Positions 20,284 to 41,132 are shown, counted from the stretch's first letter. The stretch: 64,000 nucleotides of DNA from an uncultured virus (IMG/VR IMGVR_UViG_3300025671_000040) (IMGVR_UViG_3300025671_000040); one strand, 5' to 3'. The notes: generated by a model from the sequence alone, not told the origin. A program made the numbers and translations.

Positions 20284-20616
20284 CTATCGCAAACGAGACC
20301 CACAATCCAAACAAAACTCAGACCACGGATACGACTTCCGCTTCTCCAACGGATGCATACACGTAAACACCTCACGCCACCGAGCATCCGCCATCTGACG
20401 CAACCACTCAGAAACCGACAAACCATCAGCCTCCGCACACTCCTGCCACTGATCCCGCTGCGACTCAGAAACACGAATAAGCACCTGCTTATCACGCACC
20501 TCATCCACAGGCTCCGCCACAGACTCAACCAAAGCAGCCTCAACAGCACCAACCGCCTCAGCCCGAGCAACCTCATCAGCCAACAACGTCTTCTTCAAAT
20601 AATCACTAGACATCAC
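20284..20616 (-). CDS. Ribbon-helix-helix protein with C-terminal zinc motif
   Basis: VLIRVSESQRDQWQECAEADGLSVSEWLR; CMH...CLDC. Confidence 0.75.
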   Translation of the reverse strand: MMSSDYLKKTLLADEVARAEAVGAVEAALVESVAEPVDEVRDKQVLIRVSESQRDQWQECAEADGLSVSEWLRQMADARWREVFTCMHPLEKRKSYPWSEFCLDCGSRLR

Positions 20617-21278
20617 AAATCCTCACTTTCATCAACAATCTCAGCATCAACAACATCCAAATCATCCAACTCAACCCTATCCTCCTCCAAACCACCACGC
20701 TCCTCAACACTAGACAAAATATCCCCAACAACACCCTCATCCAAAACCCCAGACGAAGCCATCAACTCCAACAACTGCAACGACTCCGCCTTCGCAGCCT
20801 CCCCCGTCTCCAACACCTCACCACCAGCAGCACCAGCCAAACTACTCCGAACATCAATGGTATCCCCACCACCCCCATCCATCTGCAACTCAACCACAGC
20901 ACGCTCCACATTCATACCCAAAAGCTTCGCACGACGATCCATAATACCCAACACCGTACGAACAGCGTTCTGATCCGGCTCCAACATCACCTCAGAACCA
21001 TCATCTAACACTTCCCGACGGAACTGAGTCAACGGCCACAGGCCCTTCTGAAGCTCATCTAACCTCTCCAGCTCCAACCTAAGCACCTCAGGATACGAAA
21101 GAAAAGCCTCACTATTAAGCCGACCCAACTGCCGCCGAGTAGCAGCAGCAACAGAAGCCGCCGTCATATCAAAACGACGAGCAATCTCCTGATTCGACAA
21201 ACCCGACTTCTTCAAACCAAAAATCCGGGCATCCCGCTCAGCCAAAAACTCTCTCGACAGCCTATTAGAATCAACCAT
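20613..21278 (-). CDS. HTH protein, possible terminase small subunit
   Basis: N-terminal HTH (GLSNQEIARRF), LELERLD...W, IMDRRAKLLG pattern seen in actinophage TerS-like proteins. Confidence 0.6.
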   Translation of the reverse strand: MVDSNRLSREFLAERDARIFGLKKSGLSNQEIARRFDMTAASVAAATRRQLGRLNSEAFLSYPEVLRLELERLDELQKGLWPLTQFRREVLDDGSEVMLEPDQNAVRTVLGIMDRRAKLLGMNVERAVVELQMDGGGGDTIDVRSSLAGAAGGEVLETGEAAKAESLQLLELMASSGVLDEGVVGDILSSVEERGGLEEDRVELDDLDVVDAEIVDESEDL

Positions 21279-21317
21279 AACAATACTGTATATCCCCCAG
21301 CTATACAACCACAGCAA

Positions 21318-23734: not shown

Positions 23735-24061
23735 AAATTACAGTTCCTCATCCGACGATAGGGTCAGCGAACGGGCCGACTGCATCAAATCGAGCAGCCC
23801 GTTCTGCATATCGGCGGCTGAAACCACAGTGTGGCCCGCAACCTGCTTCAACATATCCTCAATTTGAGAGATAAAGTCGGTGACATCCATAGTTGAATCA
23901 GTCATTTCTATCCTTTGGTAGTGGCTTGACGTACTCGCCGGGAGGCTGAGTAATCAAACCGATGAACGGTTGCGAGAATGTATATCCCTCAAACGGGTCT
24001 TCGCCGTAACGTAGCTTACGTAGCCACTTCTTAAACTTCTTCATGTATATACTGATTCTAC

Positions 24062-24154
24062 TTACGAGATCTCGATCTCAATCGGCTGCTGCTCTTCCGG
24101 AATAACCTTCTCTACATTGATACTCAGCAAGCCGTCAGCCATCGACGCAGACAT
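24062..24154 (-). pseudogene. C-terminal remnant of a small heat-shock protein (Hsp20)
   Basis: ASMADGLLSINVEKVIPEEQQPIEIEI matches the Hsp20 beta8-beta9 and IxI tail; N-terminal part absent. Confidence 0.65.
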
Positions 24155-24338
24155 GTTACGAAGTGTAACGGAGATAGGTGCTAGTTGGGGGGCGACCCCT
24201 TCACACTTGCCGTGGGACTAGCTGCTCCACGTCCACTACACTTGTACGCATGTAGTGGTCATAATGCTAAGCCGTACAGCCTCCAGAGAAAAGACTGGCA
24301 AAGTCTTACGGTGTGAACTGCCATCCACCCGCCTCAAC

Positions 24339-24404
24339 GCCACCTCCCCACCGAAGTGGGGAACGCTCTGAGCCTAAAGCCTATTTAACGTCGCTCAGAC
24401 GACG
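24339..24404 (-). ncRNA. Pistol self-cleaving ribozyme
   Basis: CGUCG-UCUGAG-CGACG UUAAAUAG GCU UUAGG CUCAGA GCG UUCCCCAC-UUCG-GUGGGGAG GU GGC: P1, pseudoknot, AAAUA linker, GCG, P3 and GU site in pistol order. Confidence 0.85.
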
Positions 24405-24410
24405 GTACGA

Positions 24411-24698
24411 TCATCGGGTGGTACCGACAACCTCGCCCCACGCCATGCCCTTGTTGGCACGGCTGTTCGCCTCACGGACCCAAGCGGTAGCTGCCGGGTT
24501 CAGGAAACGATCGTACTTACGGTTGCCCTGCAGAGAACGAATCTCACGGGGCGACATACCGGCAGCGTGCAGCGCATTACCGATAAGGCCACGAGGATGA
24601 CGATACGTCACCATCTTCGAGGAACGGTTACGGGCCGTCGGGGCACGCTCCGCAACCTCAGTAGCCGCCTGAATAATTGCCTTCTTCGTAATCAACAT
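24411..24698 (-). CDS. Basic hypothetical protein
   Basis: AAAGGAG RBS; promoter TTGACA...TATAAT upstream. Confidence 0.75.
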   Translation of the reverse strand: MLITKKAIIQAATEVAERAPTARNRSSKMVTYRHPRGLIGNALHAAGMSPREIRSLQGNRKYDRFLNPAATAWVREANSRANKGMAWGEVVGTTR

Positions 24699-24753
24699 AA
24701 TCTCCTTTGTTTATCGTTGACTGTGGGTATTATACCAGCCTCGGCGCAGTGTG

Positions 24754-25140
24754 TCAAGGCCAGACTCTAAAGAACGTCCACTCACCATTCTCATCAGTGT
24801 AGTAAACCCTCTTGATTCCATGCTCCCTAATCGCTTCCATGCAACGAGAACAAGGCTTAGCAAGCGCCAAATTGCCGCTCCGAGTAACACGAGCAACAAA
24901 CAACCTAGCACCCCGAGTATCACCAGCATTCCGCAAAGCATCCGCTTCAGCATGAATAGAACAATGGAAATGCTTAGAGTCCTCCACAACGGAAGGATCG
25001 TTCTTCACACGATTAAAACCCGTGGAAAGCACAGAACCGCCTCTCCATACAACAGAGCCTAGACGCCACTTATCATGATCAGACTTTTCGGCAGTGGCGA
25101 CAGCAATTGTCCTCGCCGTATTACTCACTGTAATGCTCAA
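24754..25140 (-). CDS. Zinc-dependent cytidine/dCMP deaminase-family protein
   Basis: HAE and PCSRC motifs. Confidence 0.85.
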   Translation of the reverse strand: MSITVSNTARTIAVATAEKSDHDKWRLGSVVWRGGSVLSTGFNRVKNDPSVVEDSKHFHCSIHAEADALRNAGDTRGARLFVARVTRSGNLALAKPCSRCMEAIREHGIKRVYYTDENGEWTFFRVWP

Positions 25141-40537: not shown

Positions 40538-41056
40538 TTACCACCAAGCCGGTGCTGGGCGTCCTTTTGACCATACGGCAAAAGATTCTTTGTCTATTAT
40601 ATAAAACTCACGATAAATGTCAACGGCTTCCTCAATCGGAGCGTGCTTAAAACCAAGACGTTCGTGGAATGCACCACCAACAGCCAACGCAATATCAGTC
40701 AACTCGCCGTCAGGGAGAAGATGGGACGAATCAACAATCTTGTCCAACTGCTTCAAACAAGCATGCTCCTTGTTGAACCGGAAACTGAACTCTTCACACA
40801 ACGCATAGGCGTGCTCAAAAAGCCAGTTAAAGTTACTGATCGACTCGCCCACCCAACGGGTACTCGGATGATTCGCATACCCGCCACGATGCGGCGTACC
40901 CTTAGCAGTCAAAGGCACATCGTCGTCCGTAGCACCATGTCTACGAAGAGCAGACACCAACATCTGAACGCTCTCAACAGTCATCTTCGGCACATGCTTA
41001 TCACACAGAGCCTGCGCTGCTTCTACCGGATCAGTTTCAACAACAAATATGTTCAT
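40538..41056 (-). CDS. Pyrimidine-dimer DNA glycosylase (DenV-like family)
   Basis: MNIF...CDKHVPKMTVESVQML...HPSTRW...YREFY...K...W...R.P.W. Confidence 0.8.
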   Translation of the reverse strand: MNIFVVETDPVEAAQALCDKHVPKMTVESVQMLVSALRRHGATDDDVPLTAKGTPHRGGYANHPSTRWVGESISNFNWLFEHAYALCEEFSFRFNKEHACLKQLDKIVDSSHLLPDGELTDIALAVGGAFHERLGFKHAPIEEAVDIYREFYIIDKESFAVWSKGRPAPAWW

Positions 41057-41058
41057 AG

Positions 41059-41132
41059 TACCCCCGGTGGGACTCGAACCCACACTGTAGGCGTTTTAAG
41101 CGCCCTTTCTCTGCCAATTGGAATACGGGGGC
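41059..41132 (-). tRNA. tRNA-Leu (anticodon UAA), short variable arm, no encoded CCA
   Basis: GCCCCCG/CGGGGGT acceptor; GGGCG-CTTAAAA-CGCCT; GTGGG-TTCGAGT-CCCAC. Confidence 0.88.

Follow-up and report, generated by a model that had tools for sequence, protein, structure and literature searches.

The window, as the whole stretch of 64,000 nucleotides analysed here is called, comes from an uncultured virus and carries on its minus strand a compact unit in which a promoter-like site, a gene for a 95-aa protein, a short spacer, a predicted pistol self-cleaving ribozyme and a conserved structured RNA follow one another (Table 1). The neighbouring ORFs all lie on the same strand and encode two cytidine/dCMP deaminases, a thioredoxin, a 2OG-Fe(II) oxygenase, a DUF6356 protein and a WhiB-type regulator. 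The upstream cytidine-deaminase-like ORF ends within the promoter-like site, its stop codon overlapping the −35 box. The WhiB-type gene, which we take to be an actinobacterial sign from where such genes occur, and the Gordonia-phage relatives of the ribozyme described below together suggest an actinobacterial host, and the phage that carries the window's pistol, which is present in freshwater samples, is an uncultured and probably actinobacterial one.

An initial annotation, made from the sequence alone, had proposed a strong TTGACA/TATAAT promoter before the 95-aa gene. The site is far beyond chance, since the 64 kb hold two exact copies of the pattern where 100 shuffles lead one to expect 0.01, and the same 12/12 site is kept before the gene in two related loci (L315 and L318). 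A second perfect promoter-like site, TTGACA-16-TATAAT, lies at 40596-40623 on the minus strand, some 440 nt downstream (on that strand) of a tRNA at 41132..41059.

The 95-aa protein matches phrog_572, a family of unknown function (E 6.7e-7), and has no match in Pfam. Its own family comprises 13 metagenomic protein clusters, none of them named, and tblastn found no match to it among 50,697 cultured-phage records. Beyond the structured RNA stands a 30-codon ORF that resembles the C-terminal end of Hsp20 and nothing more of it, covering positions 73-102 of 102 in the Pfam model (20.9 bits against a cut-off of 20.8) and positions 120-147 of 148 in the PHROG (E 3.4e-5). No upstream continuation of Hsp20 was found in any frame, and the ORF probably remains from an hsp20 gene that was cut short at the place where the pistol module stands today. 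A scan for GC-rich stems followed by T-runs gave no terminator-like site between 23200 and 24800. Further along the window, at 20616-21317 on the minus strand, a 234-aa acidic protein matches phrog_645, labelled 'Rnase E' (E 5.7e-14); it also weakly matches the sigma-70 region 4 helix-turn-helix, and the 'Rnase E' label looks doubtful.

Table 1. Features of the locus, in the order of transcription (positions are those of the window)
Feature	Position	Strand	Basis or detail
Promoter-like site (predicted), TTGACA-17 nt-TATAAT, TG before the −10 box	24729..24757	-	12/12 consensus match
95-aa ORF	24411..24698	-	ORF list; AAGGAG 7 nt before ATG; TGA at 24413-24411
6-nt spacer, stop codon to P1	24405..24410	-	Sequence; kept in relatives
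Pistol self-cleaving ribozyme (predicted), 67 nt	24338..24404	-	RF02679 full-model match
P1 hairpin, 5 bp CGUCG/CGACG, 6-nt loop	24389..24404	-	Sequence and covariation
Catalytic core UUAGG-CUCAGA-GCG	24364..24377	-	16/16 invariant columns of core alignment matched
P3, 8 bp UUCCCCAC/GUGGGGAG, UUCG loop	24344..24363	-	cmscan alignment and script
G-U junction, predicted scissile bond G24343/U24342	24342..24343	-	Model positions 63/64
P2 3' strand GGCG, pairs with GGCU 24381-24378	24338..24341	-	cmscan
Conserved structured trailing RNA, no known family	24168..24342	-	Models R1 and R2; starts at cut-site U
Trailing-RNA hairpin 1, GUGGA-UGGCAG-UUCAC	24313..24328	-	Covariation, table of copies
Trailing-RNA hairpin 2, AAGAC-UUUGCCA-GUCUU	24291..24307	-	Loop complementary to hairpin-1 loop
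Trailing-RNA 3' domain	24180..24222	-	Outer stem 24222-24217 with 24185-24180; inner hairpin
30-codon ORF, Hsp20 C-terminal end only	24062..24154	-	Pfam PF00011 and PHROG 432

Identity and architecture of the ribozyme

The pistol self-cleaving ribozyme class reportedly goes back to Weinberg et al. in 2015. When the whole window was scanned with cmscan against the 4,227 families of Rfam 15, three matches scored above gathering, namely two tRNAs and one Pistol (RF02679), the latter at 24338-24404 on the minus strand with 73.1 bits and an E-value of 2e-11, where the gathering score is 34.5. The alignment covers model positions 1-68 of 68, the 73.1 bits were repeated in a local scan, and the nearest of the virus records searched (G001) carries an identical copy. 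The initial annotation had called a pistol-class ribozyme here and named the Rfam model as a check, and this full-length match bears it out; its span of 24339-24404 located the element correctly but omitted the last base on the 3' side and left the strand unstated. Every element that it had listed (P1, pseudoknot, linker, GCG, P3 with its UUCG loop and the G-U site) was found on the minus strand, and its distance of 6 nt from a stop codon is exact, with the TGA ending at 24411 and bases 24410-24405 standing before P1.

In P1, residues 24404-24400 pair with 24393-24389, and the loop UCUGAG (24399-24394) is the 5' strand of a pseudoknot whose 3' strand, CUCAGA (24372-24367), complements it with 6/6 Watson-Crick pairs. 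The linker reads UUAAAUA + G (also given as UUAAAUAG), and GCG (24366-24364) directly follows the 3' strand of the pseudoknot. According to the available text of PMC6154101, the pistol pseudoknot consists of six base pairs between the P1 loop and the P2-P3 junction, and the critical residues are a purine at position 32, the G33-C41 pair, G40 and G42. Residues 24374-24364 of the window read G, G, CUCAGA, G, C, G, in which 24374/24373 would be the equivalents of purine 32 and G33; if the published numbering is mapped onto the window in this way, 24366-24364 would correspond to G40, C41 and G42. Three of the four model pairs in P2 are standard (G-C, C-G, U-G) and the outer G-G is flagged by cmscan, with so short a P2 still within the range of other pistol members. 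No reading frame is open through the ribozyme, as UGA in the P1 loop and UAA and UAG in the linker between them close all three.

The window copy has in common with the class P1, P2, P3, the 6-bp pseudoknot, the 2-nt G-U junction and the core, and by its sequence is an ordinary member in which nothing is structurally different. As far as the available text of the literature goes, published pistols are prevalent in Firmicutes and environmental DNA, whereas the window copy resides in a WhiB-encoding, actinophage-like genome. An association of the class with phages is already on record (Harris 2015, PMC4604425, available text).

A pattern scan supplied 91 other distinct phage loci, whose 41-nt cores were aligned with that of the window; one of the 92 rows duplicates another, leaving 91 distinct rows to be counted, and a few rows without P1 were kept. 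The window matches 16/16 invariant columns of the 92 aligned cores. Across these cores P1 and the pseudoknot together are 93.4% paired and reach a covariation score of 0.474, as compared with 0.140 in shuffles, with 0/500 shuffles attaining the score and slid registers giving at most 0.088. P1 on its own is 94.7% paired and all 5/5 of its pairs covary, while the pseudoknot is 92.3% paired with 3/6 pairs altered on both sides; in L113 it reads UCAUGG/CCAUGA. P1 and the pseudoknot of the window fit this family-wide pattern; the initial annotation had seen compensatory changes relative to a canonical example.

Covariance model, secondary structure, pseudoknot and conserved core all agree, and they confirm, far beyond chance, the predicted membership of the element in the pistol class. 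There is virtually no likelihood left that the likeness is accidental and that no ribozyme is present at all: the E-value holds for the whole window against every family searched, the match is full-length with an unbroken pseudoknot, and the element is kept in relatives with covariation. The cmscan match and the covariation have effectively refuted that reading.

Between L113/L320 and the window the upstream proteins are 88% identical, yet three pseudoknot pairs have both of their bases changed and the stems of the RNA behind the pistol are nearly all rewritten. This divergence indicates either fast compensatory evolution or an exchange of the module at the stop codon of the gene.

In pistols the scissile bond lies within the two-nucleotide junction after P3, which is usually G-U, and cleavage leaves a 2',3'-cyclic phosphate and a 5'-OH (Harris 2015, PMC4604425, available text). 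Divalent ions support the self-cleavage of the class. The predicted cut in the window would fall 68 nt past the stop codon of the 95-aa gene and downstream of the promoter-like site, just where the initial annotation had placed it, and the P2 3' strand (24338-24341) falls in the predicted 3' cleavage product. That the RNA is cut in vivo, that its ends have the chemistry known for the class and that stability or expression is affected are inferences on our part. Public RNA-library contigs identical to the window cover 24516-24679 (X18), 24395-24546 (X19) and 24040-24180 (X21); all of these are assembled contigs, and none covers 24181-24394. Two of the further RNA-library pieces are pistol cores of other organisms, and one is the gene of a relative.

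The conserved RNA behind the predicted cut

A conserved structured sequence, here called the trailing RNA, begins at the cut-site U in every copy and extends over 175-220 nt, and the GCGUU directly past the predicted cut is invariant among the copies. The initial annotation was right about the pistol half of the locus but missed this RNA, even though it starts exactly at the predicted cut site. In the window, stop codons close every frame of the roughly 190 nt past the predicted cut. Searches with Rfam 15 over 23800-24800 of the window (E<=5) returned only Pistol and one 16-bit noise match elsewhere, and those over 15 other member loci (E<=1) only Pistol, tRNAs and noise. Among cultured phages, blastn found no record covering at least 80% of the query; the matches there are limited to the first 42-48 nt, which is the pistol core, and come from Bacillus, Curtobacterium, Gordonia, Microbacterium and a few other phages.

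Pistol-anchored patterns and protein-gathered loci together placed the trailing RNA in about nine phage lineages, namely the window type, L322/L325, L113/L320, L052, L284, L029/L291/L302, L296/L297/L301, L292/L305/L298 and L294/L304/L303. The members were drawn from viral contigs, from one metagenome scan (17 real loci among 20, the other 3 being chance matches) and from 16 loci gathered through the 95-aa protein. Most copies were found with pistol-anchored patterns, which biases any statement that the RNA always follows a pistol; among the 16 protein-gathered loci it is present in nine, each of which has a pistol, and the remaining seven lack it. A pistol-independent loop pattern gave at least 117 loci, nearly all of them chance matches in coding DNA, with L164 and L182 real. 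A junction pattern gave 45 loci, five of which are real pistols and one of which (L284) is new, and a 3'-domain pattern found only two contigs, both already known. A single match in a genome-collection scan (L310) was set aside as a chance one with no P1.

Two covariance models were built, R1 for the 3' domain and R2 for the 5' domain, which both realign all copies and give the window 49.9 and 47.4 bits, respectively. In the R2 alignment, which like that of R1 was fitted to its model and so favours the structure, 89.1% of the cells of the 5' domain are paired and 9/11 pairs are altered on both sides. The covariation score is 0.497, where shuffles give 0.205 (0/500) and slid registers at most 0.178; the helix of hairpin 1 is 96.5% paired with 5/7 pairs covarying. 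In the R1 alignment, favourable to its structure in the same way, the 3' domain is 88.4% paired with a score of 0.373 against 0.174 (0/500) and at most 0.096 in slid registers. Its outer stem is 98.8% paired with 5/6 pairs covarying, and its inner hairpin, GGGG-UCGC-CCCC at 24199-24188 in the window, finds support in the pairing of GGU/ACC in L303 and of GGGG/CCCC in the window. An independent full-length run of MAFFT and RNAalifold recovered the same three helices, with double changes at 14/18 pairs, and gave only these three because the middle part is poorly aligned. Middle helices, such as a GUAC-loop hairpin after CUGAAG, are proposed by reading the sequences only.

The hexaloop of hairpin 1 is CGGCAA, or UGGCAG or UGGCAU in the window/L322 lineage, and the loop of hairpin 2 holds the complement UUGCCG (UUGCCA) on a stem that differs in nearly every lineage. 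This loop-loop complement is present in 17/17 copies, with 6/6 pairs in 15 and 5/6 in two. Since a single evolutionary double change, from C-G to U-A in the window/L322 lineage, supports the contact, a kiss of hairpins 1 and 2 through their complementary loops is suggested, not proven.

The models are specific. Over 216 kb with some 95 other pistol loci, plus GTE7 and Amore2, only known members scored and noise reached at most 13 bits; on 100 decoy loci with chance loop motifs, drawn from the matches of the pistol-independent loop pattern, only the two true loci exceeded 12 bits. The trailing RNA is real as a conserved element and, with good covariation support, is a candidate for a new family of structured RNA. 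Most of the roughly 95 other pistol loci searched do not have it, and the pairing of pistol and trailing RNA is therefore lineage-specific.

In L320 a tRNA begins 4 nt past the closing stem of the trailing RNA, so that RNase P could define the 3' end of the RNA there; no comparable 3'-end-maker is evident in the window. Six loci (L296, L297, L298, L301, L302 and L052) have a second conserved element 10-120 nt past the trailing RNA, a long imperfect hairpin that starts with the anti-Shine-Dalgarno-like CACCUCCC and is followed by no T-run; it is absent from the window.

Several candidate relationships were tried and rejected. The 72-aa ORF upstream of the L296-type copies is no homologue of the 95-aa protein by BLASTP (E 19), and diverged copies of the trailing RNA in GTE7, L072, L059, L071 and L045 are unsupported by R1 and R2. 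The RNA was also considered as a thermometer-type leader of Hsp20, given the Hsp20-like ORF behind it, but translations read by eye showed no Hsp20-like sequence after it in other lineages, and the window itself has only the C-terminal fragment. A tRNA-like T-arm in the 3' hairpin was dismissed as well, the loop sequences not fitting the motif.

Sister loci and the surroundings of phage pistols

Sixteen sister loci were gathered through the 95-aa protein alone (86-100% identical), independently of the ribozyme. A pistol above gathering stands 6 nt past the stop codon in 11/16, with this 6-nt spacing in 11/11 of them, and there is none in 5/16. Nine of these loci (L311-313, which are identical to the window, L320 and L322-326) have the trailing RNA behind the pistol, and two (L319 and L321, the same contigs as L039 and L008) have a dCMP-deaminase gene there. 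The pistol-free loci have either a GC-rich hairpin with a T-run (three loci: L315, L317 and L318) or hairpins and then a tRNA (two loci: L314 and L316). The GC-rich hairpins lie, by eye, about 50 nt past the stop codon of the gene, and a terminator scanner applied to L315 and L318 returned stems of 19 and 18 pairs, each followed by nine T's. As 5/16 of the sister loci are without it, the pistol is dispensable for the upstream gene.

The conserved unit of promoter and gene ends in either a predicted terminator or a predicted pistol. The intrinsic terminators predicted in L315, L317 and L318 occupy the same slot, behind the same gene and promoter, as the pistol of the window, and with either kind of element the message would end in a stable structure. 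Terminators stop the polymerase, whereas the ribozyme would cut the RNA with transcription continuing into the downstream cargo. A pistol in place of a terminator means that transcription can go on while the RNA is still severed.

In L319 and L321 (around 1857-1862) the AUG of the dCMP-deaminase gene lies 4 nt past the predicted pistol cut, and a Shine-Dalgarno-like GGAGG that forms part of P3 would be parted from this AUG by the cut. With the GGAGG severed from the AUG, the processed message would be almost leaderless.

A position close behind a stop codon is not peculiar to this locus. Out of 100 distinct pistol-core loci in viral contigs, 89 pass a structural filter (P1 of at least 4 bp, at least 5/6 pairs in the pseudoknot, P3 and P2 found). 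By a hand count of rows, in phage genomes that are gene-dense, 69/89 of these abut the end of an ORF, defined as a same-strand ORF of at least 50 aa ending between 24 nt inside and 15 nt before P1. The location 6 nt past a stop codon is the usual pistol layout and nothing special, and pistols are typically intercistronic.

Other arrangements were seen among these loci. L062 (801, 1364) and L100 (300, 811) each carry two same-strand pistols some 510-560 nt apart with a small gene between them, and in L100 an ATG stands about 25 nt behind each pistol; the pairs look like a repeated ribozyme punctuation of a polycistronic transcript. In L072 and L059 the pistol is followed by about 190-220 nt of structured non-coding sequence and then a tRNA. 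Neither intervening RNA is matched by the trailing-RNA models, and that of L072 ends in a terminator-like hairpin.

Possible roles and known systems

The initial annotation had remarked that the biological roles of pistol ribozymes are poorly known. Their chemistry is understood, but no biological role is assigned in the available text of PMC4604425 or of the 2019 review PMC6765202. The literature found on pistols and phages likewise gave no role and no similar RNA, with the proviso that the supplement of the 2015 discovery paper may list ribozyme-associated motifs. The interest of the present ribozyme lies in its comparative context and in the unclassified RNA that it heads.

We consider it probable, though well short of certain, that the pistol acts as a functional RNA punctuation, closing off the upstream message and releasing the downstream RNA with a 5'-OH. 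RNA polymerase would start at the promoter-like site (24757..24729), transcribe the 95-aa gene and run on, and the ribozyme would fold co-transcriptionally and cut between G24343 and U24342. The upstream message would then end in a compact ribozyme fold with a 2',3'-cyclic phosphate, replacing the terminator hairpin of the sisters, and the downstream product would begin with a 5'-OH at U24342, the first base of the structured RNA. One promoter could in this manner drive an mRNA and a separate structured RNA that are physically uncoupled, or, in other sister phages, an mRNA and a nearly leaderless dCMP-deaminase message.

A simpler role would be for the ribozyme to do no more than make the 5' end of a stand-alone non-coding trailing RNA, with nothing gained by the upstream message. 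Such a role would fit with the pistol preceding the RNA in about nine lineages though the upstream ORFs differ (the one pair compared by BLASTP being unrelated, E 19), with the tRNA 4 nt behind the RNA in L320, which would give a 3' end through RNase P, and with the tight packing of phage genes, in which 69/89 pistols abut an ORF end anyway. It is nevertheless unlikely, as L319 and L321 keep the gene, the spacer and the pistol with a dCMP-deaminase gene instead of the RNA, and the pistol occupies the terminator position of other sisters, which ties its role to the upstream unit too. Conversely, the ribozyme may serve only the upstream message, through 3'-end formation or protection, with the trailing RNA an independent 5' leader. 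The conservation of the RNA, which starts exactly at the cut-site U in all copies with an invariant GCGUU, and the protein-gathered loci, which never show the RNA without a pistol (nine with it, 0/7 without), make this distinctly improbable, despite the alternation of terminator and pistol in one slot, the spacer kept in 11/11 pistol-bearing sister loci and the lack of a terminator behind the trailing RNA of the window, which leaves it contiguous with the downstream small ORFs.

It is very unlikely that the pistol is a mere passenger of mosaic phage modules without a selected role, be it a cassette boundary prone to recombination or a selfish or relic element, and possibly inactive in vivo. 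The slot behind the 95-aa gene is a mosaic hot spot, with at least five downstream arrangements, the Hsp20 C-terminal remnant adjoins the module, and the similarity between the window and Gordonia phages is confined to the 50-nt pistol core. Against this, the core positions and helices are all intact and show compensatory changes among close relatives, as with the three pseudoknot pairs altered on both sides in L113/L320 beside a protein that is 88% identical, and this indicates purifying selection on the pistol fold.

Beyond punctuation as such, we tentatively propose, as quite possible if short of probable, that pistol and trailing RNA form a two-part module and represent a new class of self-liberating phage non-coding RNA. 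Such an RNA would have kissing hairpins, a closed 3' domain, a 5'-OH end made by the ribozyme and, in some phages, a 3' end that RNase P produces where a tRNA adjoins; the module would be plugged in behind a strong promoter in place of a terminator, with one promoter giving both a message and a structured RNA. If this were true, pistols would gain a natural job as 5'-end makers for structured RNAs and near-leaderless messages. The related phages amount to a natural experiment, in which promoter and gene are kept and are then followed by a terminator, by a pistol and a near gene, or by a pistol and a structured RNA. The purpose of the pistol thereby becomes a set of testable predictions on RNA ends, stability and downstream expression.

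Two known arrangements offer a comparison. RiboJ is a synthetic insulator in which a hammerhead-type ribozyme is followed by a simple hairpin, and the downstream RNA obtains a defined 5'-OH end. As in the window, a self-cleaving ribozyme stands between promoter-proximal and downstream parts and a structured 5'-OH end would result, but the window arrangement is natural, of the pistol type and followed by a conserved complex RNA. Theta (HDV-like) ribozymes lie beside phage tRNAs and, in the available text of PMC10879173, have been proposed to act in the maturation of these. They resemble the window pistol as small self-cleaving phage ribozymes directly beside a structured RNA gene, and differ from it, so far as that text describes them, in their ribozyme class and in having a tRNA as partner, in contrast to the unclassified RNA of 175-220 nt in the window, where the ribozyme is on the 5' side.

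In the Gordonia phages GTE7, Amore2, HayZem and Austin (Getseptimavirus), a 50-nt pistol core is 90-92% identical to that of the window and is unannotated there, and the similarity to the window is limited to this core. The pistol of GTE7 (NC_016166; L002, 3010-3094) scores 48.1 bits with Rfam, with P3 misaligned by cmscan, and that of Amore2 is L003. Like the window, GTE7 and Amore2 have a CDS stop, 6 nt and the pistol, and then about 300 nt without an annotated gene. They differ from it in an unrelated upstream protein (no tblastn match) and a much longer P3 of 38 nt, and the trailing-RNA models reach at most 12.7 bits in their downstream stretch. P2 in GTE7 is GCCG/CGGU, compensatory relative to the window. 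Cultured phages with this layout of stop codon, 6 nt and pistol provide a tractable bench system. In both GTE7 and Amore2, a long perfect hairpin lies within the gene-free stretch of about 300 nt behind the pistol.
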